Below, piece by piece: positions 112 through 13,075 of a stretch of 13,075 nt of DNA (positions are counted from its first letter, which is position 1; every line of letters begins with the position of its first letter). The notes under the pieces are model-generated. The model saw nothing but the letters and a program-made list of their open reading frames with translations. It ran no database searches and was not told the DNA's origin. The DNA is from Candidatus Desantisbacteria bacterium (GTDB lineage Bacteria > JACRDZ01): contig JACQWU010000157.1 in assembly GCA_016209155.1 (NCBI GenBank), forward strand, positions 1 to 13,075, written 5' to 3'. Made by a program: the position numbers and the translations under genes.

Positions 112-219
112 ATGACTCGTAATGAAGTAATAGAACACTTAAAAAAATTCAAAGAAGAAAACAAAGATAAATATCACCATTCCAAAATATTTAAGGATAA
201 CTTATGGACTGGGCAATAA
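112..219 (+). CDS. Hypothetical 35-aa upstream small ORF (MTRNEVIEHLKKFKEENKDKYHHSKIFKDNLWTGQ). Overlaps the start of the large target gene in another frame.
   Basis: ATG at 112, preceded by a strong Shine-Dalgarno at 88-99. The TAA at 217-219 overlaps ATG 204 of the big ORF (ATGgactgggcaaTAA), an arrangement compatible with translational coupling. No homology recognised. Confidence 0.22.
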   Translation: MTRNEVIEHLKKFKEENKDKYHHSKIFKDNLWTGQ

Positions 220-3200
220 TAAATAAAATTCAAATTAAATTACAAGAACATAAAGATTCTCGTGTAAAAGAACTTCCACAGGGGGATATTAATGTTTTAG
301 TTATGAGCAACCTTTTAGCCCCGCATATTAATGCCAGTGAATTTGATATTCGGTTCATTGCTTCGGGTGCTTCCGGTGCCGGAGTTCTTTTAATAGTCAC
401 CGATGAAAAAGTTCCAATTATTATCAAATATGGGAAAAAAGAAATTGTTGATAGGGAAAAAGAAAATTATACTCTGAAAGTAAAAGAGTTTATTCAATCT
501 GAAATTATCCCAACCTTGAAAGATAGCTACATGACACTTGGTGAATATGCATCCATAGCATATATCTGGGGCGGCGGGTGGAATGAAGCCGGGAAATTTC
601 GTGATTACTTTAAGCATGAGGAATCCAGCAAAAAAATAAATGAACAAATCAGTTCTTTAATGGACGGGCTTTTTAAATGGTACAGACTTAAAAGAGGAAC
701 AATGATTCCTATTGACCAGTGGCAATGGAATCCCTCCAATGCTCTTGTCTCTGTTGAAAACAAAATCAAAGCCTGGGACAGCAATGATGGTGCTAAGAAA
801 AATTTAATTGCAGCAATTAGAAATCAGGAAAAATGGAGAAACGCAATAAGGATTGCAAACTTCAGCCAGGGTTTTTGTCATGGTGATTTGAACTGTAATA
901 ATATTATAATTTCTCAGAATAGTATTCCATTTCCAAAAATAATTGATTTTGCAAGTGTACGTGAAGGAATTACCCCTGCCAAGGACTGGGCAAAGTTTGA
1001 AAGGGAAATTAAATTCAGGTTTCTGCGGGATATCACATTGGATTCAACTGCATTTAGAAAAATGGTTAAACGAGTTGACGAAGTCTGTAATTCATTGAAT
1101 ACAACTGATGTTGATAACTCTATAAAAAAGCCATGCTATTTAATAACTTTTATAAGAAAAAAGTATTCGGAAAAAGTCAGTTCATTTTCTGATGCCCCAT
1201 ATCTTGAATATCTCTTTTATCTTTTCTATATAACACTATCATATATTATCCACCCGGAAATAAAAGATGATCTGGAAATACAAAACACAGTAATTGATTC
1301 TGCATACAGGACATTAGAAGAGATTGAAAAGTTATTCCCATACAAATATAAAAATTATACTTATCCCGGAATTTTGATTACAGAAGAAGAACCTTCTCCT
1401 AAAACTTATAAAAAAGATATTATTGATTTGCCAATAAAATTAGAAATTCCTGATAGTTATCAAAAATGGGTGGTTGATCGTTGTGAGGAAATCAATATAG
1501 AAAAATTAGTGGAAAGCAAAGACAGCGAAATTCTTTTAAGTGTAAAAATGCCGCAGATTTTTGTTCCTTTATATACCAATTCACTGGAAAACAAAACCAA
1601 TGAAGAAAAAGAGATCGAGCGTCATGAAATAGAAAAAAAACAGGAGTTGGTTAATATTGAAAAATTATCGGCGGAGAATGAATATTTAGTTATAAAAGGG
1701 CAGGCGGGTTCAGGTAAGACCACTTTATTAAAACATCTGGCTTATACTATAGCTAAAAAAATAAATCCGGATGGATTAAATGATTACCTGCCAGTACTAA
1801 TATTTTTAAATGATTTAAAGAAGGTTTCCAATTTGTCTGATAATAACATTGCCGGTACACCAAAAGCTGAAGAATTATTAACCGGTTACTTTGAAAAAAA
1901 CTGTCCCTCTCTGACTCTGGATATAATAAAAAGATTTTGCCGTGAAGGTAAAGCTATTTTTATATTTGACGGGCTGGATGAAATTAATACGGAAATAAGA
2001 AAAATCGTAGTTACTTCTTTTTCTGATTTTAGAACAAATAATAATTATCCAAAAATAGTATTGGCAGGAAGGCCGCACGGTATAGACACAAATGATAATA
2101 ATGTCTTATGTAAATTCCCCAATAAGTGCATTGAGATTAATACTTTAAATAATGAACAGATTAAAGATTTTGTAAAAAAATGGTTTTTATACGATTCTAA
2201 ACTGCAAAAAGAAGGCAAAACACCTGAGGGGATGATGTGTGAAATTACAGCTCATGAACGAGTTAAGGAACTGGTTATCAATCCACTGATGCTGACTGCT
2301 GTTTGTATTTTGTATCATTATGACCGAAAACTTCCGGAGCAGCGTGTTGAGTTGTATGAAAGGTTTATAAGCAATCTGATTTTTAAGAGATTTGATAATC
2401 CGCTAAAAATAGTAGAATTTTTAATGAGACTGGCTTTCAAAGTTCATACTGAAAAAACGAAAGAAGGAAGAGAGAGAGAAAGAAAATTTGATAACGCATT
2501 AGCCATCAAAGTAATGGAAGAAGTTTATCAGAAAGAAAAAGATGAAACCGATGTTGCATACAGGCAGAGGCTTGAGAGGCAATTTAAGAATATTGAACAA
2601 AATTGCGGACTGCTTGAAGTCAGCAATGATAAACAGTACAGGTTCTGGCATTTAAGTTTTCAGGAGTTTTTAAGTGCAAGGGATATTCAATCCCGGAATA
2701 TGAATTATGACAGGGCAATTGAAGAGTACTGGGATGATGACTGGTATGATGAAGTCATTAAGCTGCTTATAGGATATCTGGCTTTTAGCAGTAACAAGAA
2801 ATGGGCAAATACTATTGTTGAAAGCGAATTAAAAAATAAAGAAAATAATGTTTTCCCATTCAGGCGGATGTTGTTAGCCGCAGATGCGCTTAATGATATT
2901 CATAAAGATATGAGAGATAATAAGGTGCTTAAACTTGCTCAGGATTGTTTAAAGGATATTTGGGGAAAAGGGAATGATCCGAAAATATGGGTAAATGCGG
3001 GTGAAACCCTGGGCTGGTTGGGGGATACCAGAAACCTTAAAGAATTTATTCCTATTGAAGGTGGTGAATATAACTTTAAAGATTTGGGTGTTAAAAATAT
3101 AAAACCATTTGAAATAAGCAAATATCCGGTAACCAATCAATGGTTTGAAAAATTTATTAAAGCAAATGGATATGAAAATATGAATTATTGGAGTGAAGAA

Positions 3201-3695
3201 GGTAAAAAGTGGCTGAATCAACTAAAAGCCAAATACCCTCTATATTGGCACGAACGAAAATGGAAATGCCCAAATGCTCCAGTGGTTGGAGTATGCTGGT
3301 ATGAAGCGAATGCTTTCTGCCGATGGTTAAAACAAGGTTATAGATTGCCCACTGAACAAGAATGGCAAGCAACTGCCGCTGGGCTAAAAAACAGAATATA
3401 TCCATGGGGAAATGAGTTGCAAGATAATAGCTGTAATACTTATGAAACTAAAATTGGAAGAATTTCACCTGTGGGAATTTTTGCTAAAGGTTGCACTCCT
3501 CTTGGTGTAGCTGATATGGCTGGTAATGTGTGGGAATGGACTGACAGTTGGTTTGATGAAAGTAAAAATAGCAAGGTGCTTCGCGGGGGTTCATGGAACC
3601 TCAATCAGGAGCTCGCCCGATGCGCTAACCGTTACAGGAGCAATCCGGTGAACCGTGACAACAATCTCGGTTTTCGTTGTGCCAGGACTTTGTAG
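204..3695 (+). CDS. DGR target protein 1. N-terminal protein-kinase-like (APH/ChoK-type) domain, NACHT STAND NTPase, C-terminal FGE-sulfatase (SUMF1) / C-type-lectin-fold domain bearing the variable repeat.
   Basis: ATG 204 with AAGGA 6 nt upstream. Kinase motifs: G-rich loop GASGAGV, IIIKYG lysine, HGDLNCNNIII catalytic loop, IDF (DFG-like). NACHT: Walker A GQAGSGKTTLL, Walker B IFIFDGLDEI, GRPH sensor. C-terminus YRLPTEQEW...GNVWEWTDSW...RGGSW...GFRCARTL is a typical FGE-sulfatase fold. The last ~37 codons are the VR. Confidence 0.9.
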   Translation: MDWAIINKIQIKLQEHKDSRVKELPQGDINVLVMSNLLAPHINASEFDIRFIASGASGAGVLLIVTDEKVPIIIKYGKKEIVDREKENYTLKVKEFIQSEIIPTLKDSYMTLGEYASIAYIWGGGWNEAGKFRDYFKHEESSKKINEQISSLMDGLFKWYRLKRGTMIPIDQWQWNPSNALVSVENKIKAWDSNDGAKKNLIAAIRNQEKWRNAIRIANFSQGFCHGDLNCNNIIISQNSIPFPKIIDFASVREGITPAKDWAKFEREIKFRFLRDITLDSTAFRKMVKRVDEVCNSLNTTDVDNSIKKPCYLITFIRKKYSEKVSSFSDAPYLEYLFYLFYITLSYIIHPEIKDDLEIQNTVIDSAYRTLEEIEKLFPYKYKNYTYPGILITEEEPSPKTYKKDIIDLPIKLEIPDSYQKWVVDRCEEINIEKLVESKDSEILLSVKMPQIFVPLYTNSLENKTNEEKEIERHEIEKKQELVNIEKLSAENEYLVIKGQAGSGKTTLLKHLAYTIAKKINPDGLNDYLPVLIFLNDLKKVSNLSDNNIAGTPKAEELLTGYFEKNCPSLTLDIIKRFCREGKAIFIFDGLDEINTEIRKIVVTSFSDFRTNNNYPKIVLAGRPHGIDTNDNNVLCKFPNKCIEINTLNNEQIKDFVKKWFLYDSKLQKEGKTPEGMMCEITAHERVKELVINPLMLTAVCILYHYDRKLPEQRVELYERFISNLIFKRFDNPLKIVEFLMRLAFKVHTEKTKEGRERERKFDNALAIKVMEEVYQKEKDETDVAYRQRLERQFKNIEQNCGLLEVSNDKQYRFWHLSFQEFLSARDIQSRNMNYDRAIEEYWDDDWYDEVIKLLIGYLAFSSNKKWANTIVESELKNKENNVFPFRRMLLAADALNDIHKDMRDNKVLKLAQDCLKDIWGKGNDPKIWVNAGETLGWLGDTRNLKEFIPIEGGEYNFKDLGVKNIKPFEISKYPVTNQWFEKFIKANGYENMNYWSEEGKKWLNQLKAKYPLYWHERKWKCPNAPVVGVCWYEANAFCRWLKQGYRLPTEQEWQATAAGLKNRIYPWGNELQDNSCNTYETKIGRISPVGIFAKGCTPLGVADMAGNVWEWTDSWFDESKNSKVLRGGSWNLNQELARCANRYRSNPVNRDNNLGFRCARTL
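3575..3685 (+). repeat. DGR variable repeat VR1 (111 bp). Matches TR except for 9 substitutions, all at TR adenines.
   Basis: Aligned by eye to 5160-5270. Changes are AA>CT (x2), A>T, A>G, A>T, A>G, A>C. They map to first/second positions of TR AAC/AAT codons and to one GAG codon in the target frame. Confidence 0.92.
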
Positions 3696-3724: not shown

Positions 3725-3740
3725 ACCGCCGTTAGGCGGT
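3725..3740 (+). promoter_or_regulatory. GC hairpin ACCGCC-GTTA-GGCGGT, 40 nt downstream of VR1. Candidate DGR homing hairpin/cruciform; it may also terminate the target transcript.
   Basis: 6-bp GC stem with a 4-nt loop, located within the ~75-bp post-VR extension that is conserved after both VRs but absent after TR. Such a GC hairpin 3' of the VR is needed for efficient homing in the Bordetella phage BPP-1 DGR. Confidence 0.55.
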
Positions 3741-3766: not shown

Positions 3767-4114
3767 TTGCCTAAAGAAGTTGATGCTATTACAAAACTTT
3801 ATGATTTTATTCTTTGGATAATCCCGAAGCTGGAAAAATTTCCACGCAGTCAGAAATTTTTACTGGCGGACAGAATTGAAAATTTTTTACTCGATATTCT
3901 TGAACTTTTGATTGAAGCGTCTTATTCCAAAAATAAATCCAATCAACTCAAAAATGCAAATTTGAAACTTGAACAACTGCGTTATTTAATAAGATTATCC
4001 AAGGACCTTAAATTACTTGATTTAAAAAGTTATGAATTTTCTGCTCAGACAATTAATAATATTGGCATTTCTATTGGAGGTTGGTTAAAATATACAAATC
4101 ATGAAAACATATAA
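3767..4114 (+). CDS. avd: Accessory variability determinant (Avd), a four-helix-bundle DGR accessory protein
   Basis: 115 aa, TTG start at 3767 with AGGAG 5 nt upstream. Basic helical protein with KLYD...ELLIEASYSKNKSNQLKN, resembling BPP-1 Avd (KCYD...VAGKSNQVSKL). Sits between the VR and the RT, and its TAA overlaps the RT start (4101-4114). Confidence 0.85.
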   Translation: MPKEVDAITKLYDFILWIIPKLEKFPRSQKFLLADRIENFLLDILELLIEASYSKNKSNQLKNANLKLEQLRYLIRLSKDLKLLDLKSYEFSAQTINNIGISIGGWLKYTNHENI

Positions 4115-5213
4115 CAATCTATTTGATAAAATAATTTCATTTTCTAACCTTCTTCTCGCTTCCCAAAAAACGCAAAAAGGCAAGCGTTTTAAAGATGGAA
4201 TTGCTTTGTTTAATTTGAATCTGGAAAAGGAATTGATTAAACTGCAAAAAGAATTACAGGAAATGACTTATCATCATGGTGAATACCGTGATTTTTTTGT
4301 TTACGATCCAAAAAGACGGTTAATCAGCGCTGCTCCATACCGGGATCGAGTGGTTCATCATGCTCTTTGTAATATTATTGAACCAATTTTTAATAAAGCA
4401 TTTATTTATGATTCATATGCTAACCGGAAGGAAAAAGGTACTCATGCCGCAATTAATAGATATACTGAATTTGCCGGAAAAAATAAATATGTTTTGCAAT
4501 GTGATATACAAAAATATTTTCAAAGCGTTAACCATGAAATACTTCTGGAGATTATTTCAAAAAAGATTACATGCGTAAAAACACTCTGGCTTATTAGAGA
4601 AATCATCAATACACGATGCGATGAAAATTATTTCTTTTACTTTGAAAATGACGACCTTTTCAGCCCGTTTGAAAAAAAGAAAGGAATTCCTATAGGTAAT
4701 TTAACAAGCCAATTTTTTGCCAATGTTTATCTAAATGGTTTTGATCATTTCATAAAAGAAACGATTAAATGTCCATACATTCGCTATGTCGATGATTTTG
4801 TTGTATTCGGCAATGATAAAGAACAATTGCATGAAGTAAAAAATCAAATGGATATTTATCTTGCTTCATTACGTTTAAAACTTCACGAGAGAAAATGCAG
4901 AATATATCAAATCAAAGATGGACTTAACTTTCTTGGTTATAGAATATTTCCTGAGTATCGATTACTTAAGAAAGATAATATATTACGAATGAAAAGAAAG
5001 CTTAAAAAATTAAGCCATCAATATAAACATGGCTCAATTTCTCTTGATAAAATTCATCAAAGTATTCAAAGTTGGATAGGCCATGCTTCCCATGCCGATA
5101 CTTACAATTTAAGATCAAAGCTATTGGGAAGTGTAGCTTTTCAAAGGGGTGCGACCAGAGGTGCTTCGCGGGGGTTCATGGAACAACAATCAGGAGAACG
5201 CCCGATGCGCTAA
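4101..5213 (+). CDS. DGR-type reverse transcriptase. The last 18 codons are encoded by the template repeat.
   Basis: RT motifs: [11 protein letters not shown] (motif 1/2), [28 protein letters not shown] (the [I/L]GxxxSQ motif 4 characteristic of DGR RTs), [12 protein letters not shown] (YxDD). TR begins at 5160, inside the 3' end of the ORF. Confidence 0.92.
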
Positions 5214-5270
5214 CCGTAACAGGAACAATCCGGAGAACCGTAACAACAATATCGGTTTTCGTTGTGCCAG
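5160..5270 (+). repeat. DGR template repeat (TR), 111 bp. In the target reading frame it carries 12 AAC/AAT (Asn) codons.
   Basis: This copy has adenine at every position where VR1 or VR2 differs, and it sits next to the RT. Homology to the VRs begins at GGTGCTTCGC and ends at GTGCCAG; TR then continues TACTAAAAAAG whereas both VRs continue GACTTTGTAG. Confidence 0.92.
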
Positions 5271-5274
5271 TACT

Positions 5275-5448
5275 AAAAAAGTTTGTTTTTGCCGGAGCCT
5301 TATCTTTTAAGAAAAGATAGGGGTGTGCATTTACTTAAGTCCAGGTCGCAATCCTGTGTTGGCTTATTTTAGCCAACCAAAATAAAAATAGCTCTATCCG
5401 GGGTTAGTAGGGAGACTGAAAACTCCGGGAGAGTATAAAGGAGAAAAA
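5275..5448 (+). ncRNA. Candidate DGR RNA spacer: a structured non-coding segment 3' of TR
   Basis: No ORF. Several hairpins are visible: CTTATCTTTT-aag-AAAAGATAG (5298-5322), GTTGGCT-tatttt-AGCCAAC (5358-5377), and CCGG...CCGG (5398-5430). In BPP-1 the spacer 3' of TR provides the priming site for cDNA synthesis. The role here is inferred only. Confidence 0.3.
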
Positions 5449-7301
5449 TTGGGAAAATTTAAAATTAAAATTTTAAGTGATAATCCGGAAGAAATAAAAG
5501 AAAACATTAAGTTTGATTTTCATGCTTATAAAAAAACATTTGTTGATATCATATCCTCAAATGATAATGAAACTCCGCTTGTAATAGGGCTTGAAGGCAG
5601 ATGGGGGAGAGGTAAAACCACATAGATATAAAAAAATTATGGGATAAACTTAATCTTAAGGCAATACCTGAATTTTTAGTAGACTATATTCCTTTTTTAA
5701 AAGGTTTTTCAAATATAATAAAAGAAGAAGATTATAAAAAAAACCTGCCGTATTTTAACCTTTTCAGCACATTTTTAAAACAATTAATCAGGCTTTGGAT
5801 TCATTGTGAAGATTCATTTAAAATAACTGATGGAGAAAGCATTGGGGTTGGAGAAATAGATGATAAAAAAGGTGTTGTGGTAATTTTTATTGACGACCTT
5901 GACAGGTGTAATAAAGAAAATATTGTAAAAGTTCTAGAAGCTGTGAAACTTTTTCTTGATTTTAGAGGATGTATTTTCGTAATGGGGGTTTCTATAGAAA
6001 TTATAGTAAAGGCTACTTCTTCTGTGGCTCATTGTGAAGATGGAAGTGAATACCTTGAAAAGATGATTCAGGTATCATACGGACTTCCACCAATTCACCA
6101 GGATGATATGAAAATTTATTTCGAAGAAAAAATTTCCCTATTTTCCTATAATGATATCTTAAATAAATACTCAGACGTAATTATAAAATCATTTGGAGAT
6201 AGGATTACTCCAAGAAAAATTAAGCAGTTCATTAATAATCTAAACCTGCAAATTAAGATATCAGATAATAAGGGTTTATTTGAAAAAGATTTTTATGATG
6301 AAAATAATAATAAAATAATTTTAAAAATTGATCATTATATATACTGGAATATTCTGAAAGAAGCATTTAGAATAAATTTTGATAGTATTAAAGATAATAC
6401 AGATATTATAAAAATGACACAAACCGCATATAAAGAAAATGAAGCTCAAATAAAAAATAGTAATTTTGAAAATATTGATAAAATCCGATACGAAGTTGTT
6501 AAGGATATACTAAAAAATCAAATGTTACGGGAGATAGTTATAAATTTACCTGATAATGCTGAGATTATAAATATATTAAAATTTGAATCTTTAGCAGTTG
6601 GTCAAATACATATAGAAACAGAAGATATGAAGGGAATGCGTGAGCATTATCGTAGTGGGGCAATGGTAAAAATTGAAAAAGGTCCGTTTTTATATACAGA
6701 GGAAAAAATTAAAGAAAAAATAGATTACGATTATGAAATAGATATATTCCCTGTTACAATTGAAGAATATTGCAAATTTATAGATATTAAGAAGCCGGAT
6801 AAAAAGGAATTAGATAATTGGATTTCTTTAGAAGGTAGGATTAAAGAGAAAGATGGAAAATATATTGTGGAAAAATGTTACGAGAAACATCCTATTATTT
6901 ATGTATCATGGTATGGTGCTAAGGAATATGCAAAATGGATGAAAAAAAGACTGCCCGAAGAAAAAGAATGGGAGAAAGCGGCAAGGGGACCAAATGGTTG
7001 GATATATCCATGGGGTGATGAGTTTGATAAAGGAAAATGCAATACCTCTGAATCCAATAATAATGATACAACTGAGGTAGACAAATATCCGAATGGAAAA
7101 AGTTATTATGGATGCTATGATATGGCAGGTAATGTCTGGGAGTGGACGGACAGTTGGTATGATAAAAATATGGATAGCAAGGTGCTTCGCGGGGGTTCAT
7201 GGTACTACGATCAGGAGTACGCCCGATGCGCTGACCGTGACAGGTACCTTCCGGAGTACCGTAACCTCGATATCGGTTTTCGTTGTGCCAGGACTTTGTA
7301 G
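5449..7301 (+). pseudogene. DGR target 2: KAP-family P-loop NTPase fused to a C-terminal FGE-sulfatase/CLec VR domain. Interrupted by a TAG and a -1 frame change immediately after the Walker A motif. The intact downstream ORF is 5616/5877..7301.
   Basis: TTG 5449 with AAGGAG upstream. Frame 1 gives LGKFKIKILSDNPEE...PLVIGLEGRWGRGKTT*, i.e. KAP Walker A GxWGxGKT, with stop at 5623-5625. Frame 0 is open from 5616 and continues ...VVIFIDDLDRC, the KAP Walker B DDLDRC. The C-terminus (...YGCYDMAGNVWEWTDSWYD...GFRCARTL) is paralogous to target 1. Confidence 0.7.
7181..7291 (+). repeat. DGR variable repeat VR2 (111 bp): 14 substitutions relative to TR, all at TR adenines
   Basis: By-eye alignment. 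AAC>TAC (x5), AAT>GAT (x2), AAC>GAC (x2), AAT>CTT, AAC>CTC. The flanks are identical to TR. Confidence 0.92.
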
Positions 7302-7330
7302 CTCTTTGCACTTTTATTCTTTTACCCTTT

Positions 7331-7346
7331 ACCGCCGTAAGGCGGT
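7331..7346 (+). promoter_or_regulatory. GC hairpin ACCGCC-GTAA-GGCGGT downstream of VR2, a paralogue of the VR1 hairpin
   Basis: Same stem and same distance from the VR as at 3725-3740. The surrounding ~75 bp (7292-7360) is about 90% identical to 3686-3760. Confidence 0.55.
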
Positions 7347-7419
7347 AAAAATTTTAAAATTTTTGATTATTAACTGATTTGGGAAATATATTCCAATGAA
7401 CTTTTATTCTAACTTCAAA

Positions 7420-7448
7420 TTGCCAATGAAGCGATAATAATATATAAT
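7420..7448 (+). promoter_or_regulatory. Candidate sigma70 promoter for fic: TTGCCA (7420-7425), 17 nt, TATAAT (7443-7448)
   Basis: Hexamers read directly. About 40 nt upstream of the likely fic start ATG 7490 (RBS AGGGTG at 7475-7480). Confidence 0.4.
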
Positions 7449-7489
7449 TGCATCAATATTTGAAGCGATTAAATAGGGTGAAAAATATT

Positions 7490-8443
7490 ATGACAAAATA
7501 TATATGGCAGAAAAAGGATTGGTATGATTTTAATTATGATCATAAAGCATTGATTGAATTACTTGCAAAAGCACGTCTTATGCAGGGAAATATGCTCGGG
7601 AAAATGTCATTGCTTGATATAAACCAGGAGATAGAAGCTCAGGCTGAAGTTCTTATTGAGGAAGCAGTAAGAACAGCAGAGATAGAAGGTATGTCATTAA
7701 ACAGAGATGCAGTAAGATCATCGGTAGCTATGCGTTTAGGGCTTCCGCATGGGGTAAACATAAAAGATAGAAATGCGGATGGACTTGTTGAGGTTTTGCT
7801 TGATGCAATACATTTTAATGAAAAACCACTTACGCAGGAAAGATTAAACGCCTGGCAGGCAGCGCTTTTCCCGACAGGATATTCAGGTCTAAAGAAAATA
7901 CGTACCGGAGAATTGCGGGGTCATGATCCAATGCGTGTAATATCAGGACCTATAGGTAAAGAAAAAATGCATTTTGAAGCACCGCCTGCGCAGCAGATTA
8001 AAAAAGAATTAAGCCATTTTATAAATTGGTGGAATGATTCATCGGATAAAATGGACGGTATGTTACGGGCTGCTGCCGCGCATCTGCGATTTATAACAAT
8101 ACACCCTTATGAGGATGGAAATGGAAGAATAGCGCGCGCACTGACAGATATGGCTCTTTCACAGGATTAAAAAATAAAAGTAAGATTTTATAGTGTTTCT
8201 TCACAAATCATGAAAAATCGGGAGGATTATTACAATATTCTTGAAAATATCCAGAACTGTCGTCTTGATGTCACTGAATGGTTTGTATGGTTTATAAAAT
8301 GTGTTATATCCGCGATAGAACATTCGCAAAATATTATTGCAAATGTGTTCAAAAAAGCTGAATTCTGGAAAAAACATGCACAAACACAATTAAATGAAAG
8401 ACAGAGAAAAGTGATAGCTAAACTTCTTGAAGCAGGTCCCTAA
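7490..8443 (+). pseudogene. fic: Fic/DOC family protein (N-terminal DUF4172-like region + Fic domain) containing an in-frame TAA at 8168-8170. The track splits it into 7448..8170 and 8210..8443.
   Basis: Fic active-site motif HPYEDGNGRIARAL. N-terminus MTKYIWQKKDWYDF. Both pieces share one frame and are separated only by the TAA (...ALSQD*KIKVRFYSVSSQIMKNREDYY...). The C-terminal piece has the usual winged-helix tail (NERQRKVIAKLLE). Confidence 0.6.
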
Positions 8444-8471
8444 AGCAAAATCAACTTCTTTGCTGTCTTTT
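8444..8471 (+). terminator. Candidate rho-independent terminator after fic: AGCAAA-(9 nt)-TTTGCT followed by GTCTTTTGTG
   Basis: 6-bp stem, T-rich tail, directly after the TAA at 8441-8443. The stem is AT-rich, so this is a weak call. Confidence 0.35.
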
Positions 8472-8541
8472 GTGCGCATATAGTGTAAGGATATATTCAT
8501 CCCTTTAGCATCATGCAAATATTGGATATGTTTAAGCAGGC

Positions 8542-8859
8542 TTACTGCAACAGTAAGGGCGAACCTACTCGTTTACGAAGCATTTCCAGTAAAAGACGGA
8601 TTGCCCTGATTTCACTTATACGACTAAAATCCATTACATCTTTACGCACAATATCCGTATAATATTGCTGGCGCCAGCGCTCGGCATACTCATCAGATAA
8701 GGAAAGAAATGGTTCAGGAAAACCGCCTAATCTATTTAATGCAGAAACTGCTTCGTAAGGTGGCAAGAGACCGGATAATTCCTTTACCGAAAGCGGATTT
8801 AAATGGAAAAGAAAATATCTGCCTGCAAGGGAATCTCCTGTTTGCCGAAAAGTATCCAA
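8542..8859 (-). pseudogene. Internal fragment of an AAA+ ATPase of the COG1373/DUF4143 type (gene remnant)
   Basis: 105-aa ORF with ...TGDSLAGRYFLFHLNPLSVKEL..., the conserved GR...L.PLSFxE segment of this family. It lacks the N-terminal P-loop and the C-terminal DUF4143, and is bounded by an in-frame stop immediately upstream of its TTG. Confidence 0.5.
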
Positions 8860-8876
8860 TTATTGCAAAATAGTCA

Positions 8877-8906
8877 AGACTAAAATGCATTTTGATGCAT
8901 TTTAGT
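8877..8906. repeat. Perfect 13-bp inverted repeat GACTAAAATGCAT-tttg-ATGCATTTTAGTC
   Basis: Read directly. It lies between the stop of the minus-strand 61-aa ORF (8902) and the ATPase remnant. It could be a transcription terminator for the minus-strand thrC-SPFH-lipoprotein operon, or a protein-binding palindrome. Confidence 0.5.
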
Positions 8907-9087
8907 CGTATTTTCTAAATTTAATTATTTCTTTTTCTCCTAAAAATTTAGGTTGTCTTTTAATTACATATAAATCAATTACAGTTTTAAACCTGGCAAA
9001 TATTTCTCTCAATCTAACTTTAGTTCCATAAATGTTTTTAACATCATCAGCACAATATCCGATTGCATCTTTCGATTTCCTCAGCAT
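8902..9087 (-). CDS. Hypothetical 61-aa ORF overlapping the lipoprotein ORF in the +1 frame. Possibly the C-terminal part of the same lipoprotein.
   Basis: MLRKSKDAIGYCADDVKNIYGTKVRLREIFARFKTVIDLYVIKRQPKFLGEKEIIKFRKYD. No recognised family. Overlaps 9047..9087. Confidence 0.3.
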   Translation of the reverse strand: MLRKSKDAIGYCADDVKNIYGTKVRLREIFARFKTVIDLYVIKRQPKFLGEKEIIKFRKYD

Positions 9088-9164
9088 TAAAGGACACTGA
9101 GGAGGAACAAGCAGAAAGAAAAATAGAAATAATTATGACTAATTTAAATTTTTTAAATTTCATA
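9047..9164 (-). CDS. Small lipoprotein N-terminal part (signal peptide with lipobox LSAC): MKFKKFKLVIIISIFLSACSSSVSFNAEEIERCNRILC
   Basis: ATG at 9164-9162, 16 nt downstream of the SPFH stop. Positively charged N-terminus, hydrophobic core and L-S-A-C lipobox. Ends after 38 aa. A +1-frame ORF (8902..9087) continues, so this is probably one frameshifted gene. Confidence 0.35.
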
Positions 9165-9179
9165 TTTGATTTATTAATG

Positions 9180-9947
9180 TTATGTATTAGTGATTTTTTT
9201 GCCTTCAACCTGCAAACTTTTAATAGTTTGAGCAAATTCTGTTGGTACTAAAATGATAAGACTATTCTGTTCAGAGCCAATCTCCTGCCAGGTCTGGAGC
9301 TGTCTTAAAATTAAAGCATTGGGGGATTCAGAGATAATTTTGGCAGCTTCTGTAAGCTTTTTGCTCGCCTCTTCTTCGGCAGACGCTTTGACAATTCGCG
9401 CTCTTTTTTCACGCATGGCTTCAGCCTCTTTTGCCATAGCGCGCTTCATATTGTCAGGTATTTCTATATTTTTAATTTCAACACTAATTATATTAATACC
9501 CCAGACATCCGTCGGGGACTGCAAAGCATCTAACACTTCTTTGCCAATTTGGTCTTTATTTGATAATAGGGTATCCAGATCATATTTTCCTAAAACATCT
9601 CTTAGTTTTGACTGCGCAAGTAAAGTGGAAGCCAGATTAAAATTATCAACTGCAATAATTGATTTTGCGGCATCGAATATTTTGTAATAAACAACTGCAT
9701 CTATTTTTATAGGGACAGAATCTTTAGTCATAATTTCCTGCGGAACAACGTCCATGGTTCGGACGCGCATATCAACAAGTTTTACATACTCAATTCCAGG
9801 GATGATTACATTAAAACCCGGATTAATTTCTCTATTCAACTTACCAAGACGGAAAACCACACCTTTTTGCCACTGGTCAACAATTCGAATACCCATAATT
9901 ACAATTATTACTGTAACTATAATTAATAAAATTAGTAAGCCTGACAT
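9180..9947 (-). CDS. SPFH/band-7 (stomatin/prohibitin-like) membrane protein
   Basis: N-terminal TM helix LLILLIIVTVIIVIMGI. Then VVFRLGK...PGIEYVKLVDMRV...IDAVVYYKI... typical of the SPFH domain, and a C-terminal coiled-coil rich in E/A/K. AAGGAG lies 6 nt before the ATG at 9947. Confidence 0.9.
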   Translation of the reverse strand: MSGLLILLIIVTVIIVIMGIRIVDQWQKGVVFRLGKLNREINPGFNVIIPGIEYVKLVDMRVRTMDVVPQEIMTKDSVPIKIDAVVYYKIFDAAKSIIAVDNFNLASTLLAQSKLRDVLGKYDLDTLLSNKDQIGKEVLDALQSPTDVWGINIISVEIKNIEIPDNMKRAMAKEAEAMREKRARIVKASAEEEASKKLTEAAKIISESPNALILRQLQTWQEIGSEQNSLIILVPTEFAQTIKSLQVEGKKITNT

Positions 9948-11436: not shown

Positions 11437-11475
11437 ATATGCTATATATGCCATATATATAACAAGGAGGACTTT

Positions 11476-13075
11476 ATGAAAAATTTGCATGTTTTTACCG
11501 TAGTCCCCAATTTACCTAAAAAAATTCAGCGTTTATCTGAACTTTTTTACAATCTCTACTGGAACTGGGATCACGAAGCGCTTGAACTTTTTATCCGTAT
11601 TGAACATGAACTGTGGGATAAGGTAAATCATAATCCGATGGTGCTGCTTGGTAAAATAAACCAGAAAAGATTGGAAGAACTTTCAGAAGACGAAGGTTTT
11701 GTAACCCACCTGGAAAGAATACTCACTAAATTCTATTATTACCGCCGTGAAAAAACATGGTTTGATATTGTACATGGAGGACAGTATCAAAATCTGGTTA
11801 TTGCATATTTTTCAGCGGAATTCGGCCTTGCGGAATCTCTTCCTATTTATTCAGGCGGATTAGGGATACTTGCCGGTGATCATTTGAAATCTGCCAGCGA
11901 TCTTGGTGTCCCGATAGTCGGCATGGGACTTTTATATCAGCAGGGATACTTCAGGCAGTATTTGAATATTGACGGCTGGCAGCAGGAAAGTTATCCCAAA
12001 AATGATTTTTATAATATGTGTATAGAATCGGTAAAAACTGAAGATAATAAGCCTCTTACAATCAGTGTTGATTTTCCCGGCAGGCAGGTAAAAGCTGCGA
12101 TATGGAATGTACAGGTAGGCAGAATTCATCTATATTTACTGGACACAAATATCCTCGAAAATTCTCTTGAAGACAGAAAGATAACAGATCAGCTATATGG
12201 CGGTGATCTTGAGATGAGAATAAAACAGGAAATATTACTGGGAATCGGCGGCGTAAGAGCTCTTCGCGCTCTAAAAATAAATCCAACTATATTTCATTTA
12301 AACGAAGGGCATTCTGCTTTTTTATCGGTTGAACGGATCCGTTTACTTATGGAAGAAAACAACCTATCTTTTGATGAAGCTTATAAAGCATGCAAAGCCA
12401 GCAATATTTTTACAACTCATACTTCGGTTCCTGCGGGGATTGATATTTTTCCGCCATTTTTAATAGAAAAATATTTTAATGGATTTTATCAAAAAATGGC
12501 TATTGATTTTGATACATTTATGGGTCTTGGCAGAATGAATGTTCCGAATAATGGGGAACCATTCAATATGGCAATATTAGCTATAAAAACAACAGTATTC
12601 AGAAATGGCGTAAGCAAGCTTCATGGAATAGTTTCACGTAAAATGTGGAAAGGTTTATGGCCGGAATTGAATGAGGAAGAAATCCCGATTAAATCCATCA
12701 CCAACGGAGTCCATGTACGTTCCTGGATATCCCATGAAATGGAAAATCTGCTTACAAGATATTTGGGTCCTTCATGGATAAATAATCCTGCTGATCAGAG
12801 CGTATGGAATAATATTTCAAAGATTCCAAGTTCCGAACTCTGGCGGGTACATGAAAGACGACGGGAATTGCTTGTTGTGTATGTCCGGGAAAAATTGCAG
12901 AATCAGATACGCGAAAGAGGAGGCTCGATGTCTGAAATTATTCAGTCTGAACAGGTACTCAATCCTGAAGCATTTACTATCGGCTTCGCAAGAATATTTG
13001 CTTCTTATAAACGCGCTACTTTAATATTTAATGATCCAGACAGACTTGAAAAAATTCTTAATAATAAAGAAAGAC
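11476..13075 (+). CDS. glgP: Alpha-glucan (glycogen/maltodextrin) phosphorylase, GT35 alpha-glucan family phosphorylase subgroup. 5'-partial: the ORF runs off the window end.
   Basis: Translated by hand: open from ATG 11476 to 13075 (533 codons). Motifs GILAGDHLKSASDLGVP, HLNEGHSAF, TTHTSVPAGID and SITNGVH are typical of the archaeal/Thermotoga-type alpha-glucan phosphorylases. Not in the ORF track because there is no stop within the window. Confidence 0.88.
   Translation, partial: MKNLHVFTVVPNLPKKIQRLSELFYNLYWNWDHEALELFIRIEHELWDKVNHNPMVLLGKINQKRLEELSEDEGFVTHLERILTKFYYYRREKTWFDIVHGGQYQNLVIAYFSAEFGLAESLPIYSGGLGILAGDHLKSASDLGVPIVGMGLLYQQGYFRQYLNIDGWQQESYPKNDFYNMCIESVKTEDNKPLTISVDFPGRQVKAAIWNVQVGRIHLYLLDTNILENSLEDRKITDQLYGGDLEMRIKQEILLGIGGVRALRALKINPTIFHLNEGHSAFLSVERIRLLMEENNLSFDEAYKACKASNIFTTHTSVPAGIDIFPPFLIEKYFNGFYQKMAIDFDTFMGLGRMNVPNNGEPFNMAILAIKTTVFRNGVSKLHGIVSRKMWKGLWPELNEEEIPIKSITNGVHVRSWISHEMENLLTRYLGPSWINNPADQSVWNNISKIPSSELWRVHERRRELLVVYVREKLQNQIRERGGSMSEIIQSEQVLNPEAFTIGFARIFASYKRATLIFNDPDRLEKILNNKER

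Follow-up and report, generated by a model that had tools for sequence, protein, structure and literature searches.

Known NTPase-CLec targets of diversity-generating retroelements

Two-target cellular diversity-generating retroelements (DGRs) of clade 5D diversify putative antigen sensors in which an NTPase is joined to a C-type lectin (CLec) domain (Dore et al., 2024, PNAS; PMC10907252). Most of these targets are NACHT or nSTAND1 proteins, while some are KAP NTPases (PMC10907252). That such proteins serve as hypervariable antigen sensors is a proposal, made both for these elements and in work on conflict systems (PMC10907252; Kaur et al., 2020, eLife; PMC7159879). The window considered here is a complete contig of 13,075 nucleotides (nt), JACQWU010000157.1, from a metagenome-assembled genome (MAG) of Candidatus Desantisbacteria, and it carries a DGR of this kind. 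The element has the same core of Avd, reverse transcriptase (RT) and template repeat (TR), together with two NTPase targets whose C-terminal FGE/CLec domains contain variable regions (VRs) that differ from the TR in an adenine-specific manner; the pairing of a NACHT with a KAP NTPase-CLec target is already described (PMC10907252). Unlike the systems in those two studies, which stress multicellular bacteria, this one lies in a Desantisbacteria MAG, and its KAP-type target is broken by a deletion of 187 nt. The interrupted gene, at positions 5449 to 7301, is the second target of the element (target 2) and is likely a recent pseudogene that arose through loss of these 187 bp just 3' of the Walker A codons. 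The break is best read as an ordinary pseudogenizing deletion in an already known kind of system, and its significance beyond a correction of the annotation is small.

The two reading frames of target 2

Target 2 begins in frame 1 with a TTG codon at 5449, five nucleotides downstream of a Shine-Dalgarno-like AAAGGAG read from the sequence (5437-5443, plus strand), and a TTG start is also used by the homologous genes at loci L001 and L083. Translation, Pfam matches and alignment define a 5' remnant (5449-5625, plus strand) that reads MGKFKIKILSDNPEE...PLVIGLEGRWGRGKTT and ends ...VIGLEGRWGRGKTT, giving 58 codons up to Walker A (GRWGRGKTT) before a premature TAG at 5623-5625. These residues align with positions 1-58 of 17 intact homologues and match positions 2-35 of the Pfam KAP_NTPase profile (E 1.7e-6), with the Walker A motif GxxGxGK[ST] present as GRWGRGKT. 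The 3' remnant (5616-7301, plus strand; translation, list of open reading frames (ORFs) and Pfam) lies in the -1 frame, which, after a TAA at 5613-5615, stays open from 5616 until the TAG at 7299-7301 and ends ...GFRCARTL. It encodes the remainder of the KAP NTPase, a helical region and the FGE/CLec domain: the 561-amino-acid piece matches KAP_NTPase positions 145-287 (E 2e-21) and the full FGE-sulfatase profile, which has the CLec fold (E 2.4e-47), and the Walker B motif hhhhDDxDR is present as VVVIFIDDLDRC (FIDDLDRC). The two frames share the 10 nt from 5616 to 5625. A first-pass annotation of the contig, made from the letters alone, had traced frame 1 to this TAG and had placed Walker B and the VR-bearing C-terminus in a -1 frame open from 5616, with an overlap of about 10 nt; translation bears out all of this, and the Pfam matches agree with a KAP NTPase-CLec fusion.

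Under a chance model in which stops are expected in ~9.4% of codons at this A+T-rich composition, a frame of 562 open codons has a probability of ~1e-24. The 3' remnant also contains no in-frame start for its first 87 codons (5616-5876), and 87 open codons of this kind have a probability of ~2e-4, so that both stretches are coding sequence rather than products of chance. GenBank splits the gene into a 58-amino-acid hypothetical protein (MBI4651200.1, 5449-5625) and a 474-amino-acid SUMF1/EgtB/PvdO family nonheme iron enzyme (MBI4651201.1, 5877-7301). These two entries would be better marked as a single KAP-NTPase-CLec DGR target pseudogene.

The second entry begins at the first start codon of the 3' frame, GTG 5877, and raises the alternative that an internal start of this sort yields an NTPase-less helical-CLec ligand binder, for example a decoy or adaptor. 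The fully open 3' frame, a VR2 that is a clean copy of the TR with changes at adenines only, and the annotation of the 474-amino-acid product by NCBI are all compatible with a truncated but useful gene. However, the GTG lies within the Walker B strand and the only Shine-Dalgarno-like sequence is 2 nt away from it. A natural short form was found in 0 of 88 database relatives, save for fragments cut by contig ends, and a recent deletion explains the open frame equally well. A functional remnant of this type is thus very improbable, and the account of target 2 as a pseudogene is preferred.

A probable deletion of 187 nt just 3' of Walker A

Searching with the KAP part returned 17 full-length proteins combining KAP_NTPase and FGE-sulfatase domains (P0002-P0018, 673-695 amino acids, 56-64% identical to the window), and in all 17 the gene is a single ORF. 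After GKTT, the homologues continue LMKAIRSELQxYDKEKIxDGKRRCKTVWFQAWKYNDADNLLAALLEEIVQEMWxGNFFEKAE and then IAIxTxWNKINLKAVPEF, a pattern that can be summarized as GKTTLMKAI...CKTVWFQAWKYND...EKAE-IAI. The window passes directly from GKTT to IDIKKLWDKLNLKAIPEF, the counterpart of the homologous IAIxxxWxKxNLKAVPEF. In the protein alignment (A2) this appears as a gap of 62 columns, over which all 17 homologues are gap-free, and in the DNA alignment (A3) to the homologous genes at L001 and L002 it appears as one single gap of 187 columns. The junction falls at 5622/5623 (plus strand; protein and DNA alignments). As 187 nt are 62 codons plus one nucleotide, a single event explains the missing residues and the -1 frame together. 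A search by tblastn for the 62 residues elsewhere in the window, as would be expected after an inversion or transposition, found none (best E = 0.16).

The loss is also evident from the spacing of the motifs. Walker A and Walker B are 149 amino acids apart in the 17 close homologues (150 in one of them) and 106-208 apart in all other KAP hits, compared with 87 in a 'repaired' version of the window. Profile positions 36-144 of KAP_NTPase are absent from the window, while the intact homologue P0005 covers positions 3-287 continuously; no continuous, single-frame P-loop core connects Walker A with Walker B in target 2. Even when KAP-FGE proteins of 35-37% identity are added to the alignment, 5 columns of the deleted segment are invariant and 14 nearly so, the WF..W of strand beta2 among them. 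In the structure of P0005 predicted by AlphaFold2 (mean pLDDT, the predicted local distance difference test, of 70, with block values of 70-85 across the deleted region), the deleted residues 57-118 span a helix at 54-70, a strand at 79-86, a helix at 93-110 and the start of a helix at 113-127. On this model, the lost part comprises helix alpha1, directly after the P-loop, together with strand beta2 and the helix that follows in the P-loop core.

The deletion would thus have removed alpha1, beta2 and the following helix and shifted the frame, such that translation from the conserved Shine-Dalgarno/TTG start would terminate at the TAG after 58 residues. The remaining 1.68 kb, start-less for 87 codons, would no longer form part of a functional NTPase gene. 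Comparison with the homologues, which the first-pass annotation had suggested as a check, showed an uninterrupted junction reading GKTTLMKAI... in a single frame in 17 of 17 cases. Its first reading, that of a genuine pseudogene, is supported by these alignments, with the amendment that the lesion is a 187-nt deletion and not a one-base change. Its counter-scenario, in which the Walker A segment is normally a separate small gene, does not hold, as the segment is fused in all 17 homologues.

One-base errors, frameshifting and stop reassignment

The first-pass annotation had also considered the loss of a single base near the AAAA run at 5614-5617 through sequencing or assembly. On this account, extended to bases within the run, putting back one base would recover an intact gene. 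In its favor, the offset between the frames is exactly -1, with 10 nt of overlap. However, adding an A to the run yields GGT AAA AAC CAC, or GKNH, and destroys the GK[ST] of Walker A. Bases inserted outside the run were also tried and give GKTH or GKTT-IDIKK. Every one-base repair leaves a protein without the 62 residues conserved in all 17 homologues, and ~8.7 kb of other coding sequence on the contig is without a frameshift. With these three points against it, this reading is almost certainly wrong.

A third proposal was recoding, by which a programmed -1 shift of the ribosome, or slippage during transcription, would adjust the yield of full-length receptor. Although the offset of -1 and the short overlap are shared with programmed -1 sites such as those of dnaX and insertion sequence (IS) element transposases, the likeness ends there, for target 2 lacks the slippery heptamer, the stimulatory structure and the conservation, and its fused product would be incomplete. 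The 10-nt overlap (codons GGT AAA ACC ACA TAG) is free of any X XXY YYZ heptamer, and an A7 run at 5632-5638 is located past the stop. Downstream RNA structure is not seen either: the fold of 5600-5720 has an energy of -14.2 kcal/mol (z = +0.9), and 169 of 200 shuffled sequences fold at least as well. The arrangement is not conserved, given that all 17 full-length homologues are single-frame and that the lesions found in the relatives at L083 and L084 lie at other positions and are of other kinds. The fused product would be without alpha1 and beta2 of the NTPase. Recoding can therefore be dismissed with near certainty. Neither an added base nor a -1 slip would give a working NTPase, because the 62-residue segment stays missing in both cases. 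Reassignment of the stop codon was likewise rejected: past the TAG, frame 1 meets TAA twice within three codons, and the other genes end normally.

Age and reality of the deletion

The deletion is probably recent, since the 3' frame has gained no further stop or frameshift even though ~9% of random codons would be stops. Several points weigh against target 2 as a recent deletion pseudogene. The recency rests solely on this absence of further lesions, and the exact ancestral junction is reconstructed from homologues that are at nearest 56-64% identical. The gene is known from one assembled sequence, in which a genomic deletion would look no different from a minority allele or an artefact of assembly or consensus, and a near-identical strain for comparison was not found in the collections searched. 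An exact look-up of the window RT gave no match, nor was the 29-mer immediately before the junction present in exact form in metagenome_contigs or genome_contigs, and in a collection of 15 billion proteins each of the four from the locus is a singleton. To these may be added the slim chance that an internally initiated, NTPase-less CLec product is made.

The most substantial competing account is one in which the organism's real gene is intact and the gap stems from the assembly or is present in only some cells. The MAG contig was found only once in the collections, and the metagenomic homologues at L083 (a 1x contig) and L084 (two frameshifts) have N-terminal lesions that may themselves be technical. 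On the other hand, the rest of the contig has no frameshifts in its ~8.7 kb of coding sequence, where intact ORFs of 1163, 370, 452 and 255 amino acids are accompanied by one of more than 530 amino acids that runs off the contig end. A clean internal deletion of 187 nt without flanking repeats is seldom made by assemblers, and a long direct repeat at the two boundaries is not seen in the homologues. In addition, the adjacent Fic gene carries a lesion of a non-technical type, a nonsense codon together with a truncation. The HY745 locus-tag series, to which proteins MBI4651196-MBI4651201 of the window's assembly belong, is presumably one of short-read groundwater MAGs, in which we take homopolymer indels to be uncommon. 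An artefact or minority allele is thus unlikely, though of the competing accounts it keeps the largest share of the probability.

Lesions near the P-loop in relatives

Among ~20 close family members with a visible N-terminus, three are broken at or near the P-loop, each in a different manner: the window, L083 and L084. At L083 (2368-2580, homologue P0020), 35 nt were lost between two GAAGGC direct repeats, by which the P-loop RWGRGKTTLM is gone and the frame is shifted; the contig name suggests 1x long-read coverage, and the deletion is possibly technical. At L084 (803-1045, homologue P0019), a 1-nt deletion (GCCAGAAT to GCCGAAT) lies upstream of the P-loop, and the frame breaks again near residue 440, in the 3' part of the gene. 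As both contigs are possibly of low quality, these N-terminal lesions give a weak hint of frequent sensor inactivation. It is improbable, though conceivable, that P-loop knock-outs of KAP-CLec DGR targets are recurrent, perhaps through selection to switch off a self-reactive or costly hypermutating sensor. If so, the DGR would keep rewriting the VR of a dead gene, and this could make it a reservoir or a neutral record of homing events.

Possible homing into the interrupted target

No damage is seen in VR2, in the end of its homing tract or in the hairpin that follows, so that the remnant should still be able to receive homing cDNA, and the dead gene may remain a substrate for mutagenized cDNA. 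The adenine-only pattern of VR2 would be equally expected if the last homing preceded the deletion, so that it does not by itself tell homing after the death of the gene, which the first-pass annotation had raised, from homing before it. The locus could be used as a test of DGR homing into a target that no longer makes protein.

The KAP-CLec family

The intact relatives P0002-P0018 include a protein of Candidatus Brocadia carolinensis (L003) and the DGR-linked proteins of L005 and L007. Their 56-64% identity to the window extends over the whole length, and they share with it the TTG/ATG N-terminus, Walker A and B, the helical linker and the CLec tip; they differ in being single ORFs that retain the 62-residue segment. 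At L005 and L007 the KAP-FGE gene lies directly upstream of Avd and RT, and its 3' VR matches the TR, with mismatches at adenines in 14 of 14 positions at L005 and 20 of 21 at L007. From these sequences, the KAP-FGE genes are genuine DGR targets elsewhere.

For the closest homologues (L001, L002 and L003), no RT, Avd or TR was found within the fetched flanks of up to 10 kb, and these loci thus give no information on orthology at the level of the locus. The C-terminal tips of the three genes still vary at the same positions as across the family. These three may be orphaned targets or ones that a DGR elsewhere diversifies in trans. At L003, three repeat copies of ~100-190 nt, 69-89% identical, flank the KAP-FGE gene (8239-8424, 12306-12423 and 15101-15287), and at L001 an array of at least 13 copies of a 33-nt tandem repeat lies inside a gene at the contig end (15732-16402).

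The NTPase part of P0005 matches models of anti-phage KAP proteins, namely PifA (E 1.9e-33), the PADLOC candidate PDC-S20 (E 3.7e-28) and QatA (E 5.3e-27), which supports a role of the KAP-FGE family as defense sensors. By analogy with PifA and QatA and with the literature, the intact relatives probably act as NTP-dependent sensors in which the hypervariable CLec tip recognizes invaders. The family is nevertheless distinct from these proteins: its QatA score of 72 bits is far below the equivalog cut-off of 600 bits, PifA, QatA and PDC-S20 have no CLec domain diversified by a DGR, and partner genes from their systems are not seen in the window. The first-pass annotation had described both targets of the window as STAND-type NTPases (NACHT and KAP). 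This stands for target 1, which reaches the threshold of the NACHT model, whereas the KAP part is sub-threshold for STAND models and the label is imprecise for it, with intact P0005 scoring 20.7 bits for nSTAND_NTPase5 (cut-off 34) and 12.6 for NB-ARC (cut-off 23.5), against 122 for KAP_NTPase.

Components of the retroelement

The DGR on the contig is of full composition, with two targets, Avd, RT, TR and two VRs, and its genes run from the NACHT-CLec target through Avd and an RT that carries the TR at its 3' end to the KAP-NTPase-CLec target. Several hallmarks of a DGR are observed, namely an RT of the DGR type beside the repeats, adenine-specific differences between TR and VRs, Avd, and a VR at the 3' end of a CLec/FGE target ORF with candidate recognition elements after it.

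Target 1 (204-3695, plus strand; ORF list and Pfam) is intact and encodes 1163 amino acids with a TCAD9-like domain (E 2.2e-12), a NACHT domain (E 1.5e-10) and an FGE-sulfatase/CLec domain (E 3.7e-47), TCAD9 being a domain named for ternary conflict systems. It is followed by the Avd accessory protein of 115 amino acids (3767-4114, plus strand; Pfam bAvd PF22296, E 1.1e-20) and the RT of 370 amino acids (4101-5213, plus strand; Pfam RVT_1, E 9.5e-29). The RT contains IGNLTSQ, which we take to fit the DGR-type motif [LIV]GxxxSQ, and is 62% identical to the RT of L005, a locus with an adenine-only TR/VR pair of its own.

The TR (5159-5274, plus strand) was recognized as a member of a three-copy repeat family (D2) with adenine-specific mismatches to both VRs. 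It covers the last 55 nt of the RT gene (5159-5213), and by this overlap with the last 18 RT codons the C-terminus of the RT is encoded by template sequence. The same layout of a TR at the 3' end of the RT is seen at L005, while at L007 the TR (13473-13590) begins only after the RT match (12388-13437).

VR1, the variable region of target 1 (3574-3689, plus strand), is 91% identical to the TR. VR2, that of target 2 (7180-7295, plus strand), ends 6 nt before the stop. In comparisons within TR positions 5159-5270, VR1 has 9 mismatches, 9 of 9 at TR adenines, and VR2 has 13, all 13 at TR adenines and none elsewhere. The first non-adenine difference of VR2, a T-to-G change at 7292, also occurs in VR1 and shows where the homing tract ends.

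Downstream of VR2, DNA folding identified a GC-rich hairpin with a 4-nt loop (7328-7349, plus strand; -10.5 kcal/mol, z = -2.7), a candidate DGR target-recognition element, with a paralogous copy after VR1 at 3725-3740. The hairpin lies inside a 245-nt repeat (D1) that is common to both targets, a near-identical block (86% identity) around and after the VR, while the FGE domains of the two targets are 41% identical. The tract end, as a putative initiation of mutagenic homing (IMH) site, and the hairpin presumably act in recognition of the target. Scans for tRNAs and Rfam families across the window gave no matches.

Neighboring genes

Downstream of target 2 is a DUF4172-Fic gene (7448-8440, plus strand) with an in-frame TAA at 8168-8170, past which the same frame continues (KIKVRFYSVSSQIMKNREDYYNILE...) and the alignment to the SoFic profile reads through. 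The gene stops early, at ~8440, with roughly the last 70 profile positions missing, and from its sequence it is probably a second pseudogene. An isolated ORF of 105 amino acids (8542-8859, minus strand) with a faint match to the C-terminal part of AAA_14 (E 0.074) may be what is left of an ATPase gene that has lost both ends, and the region 8170-9180 as a whole looks like a patch of gene remnants. Lacking a stop inside the window, and for this reason missing from the ORF lists, an intact ORF at 11474-13075 (plus strand; more than 530 amino acids) runs off the contig end and by eye resembles an alpha-glucan phosphorylase.

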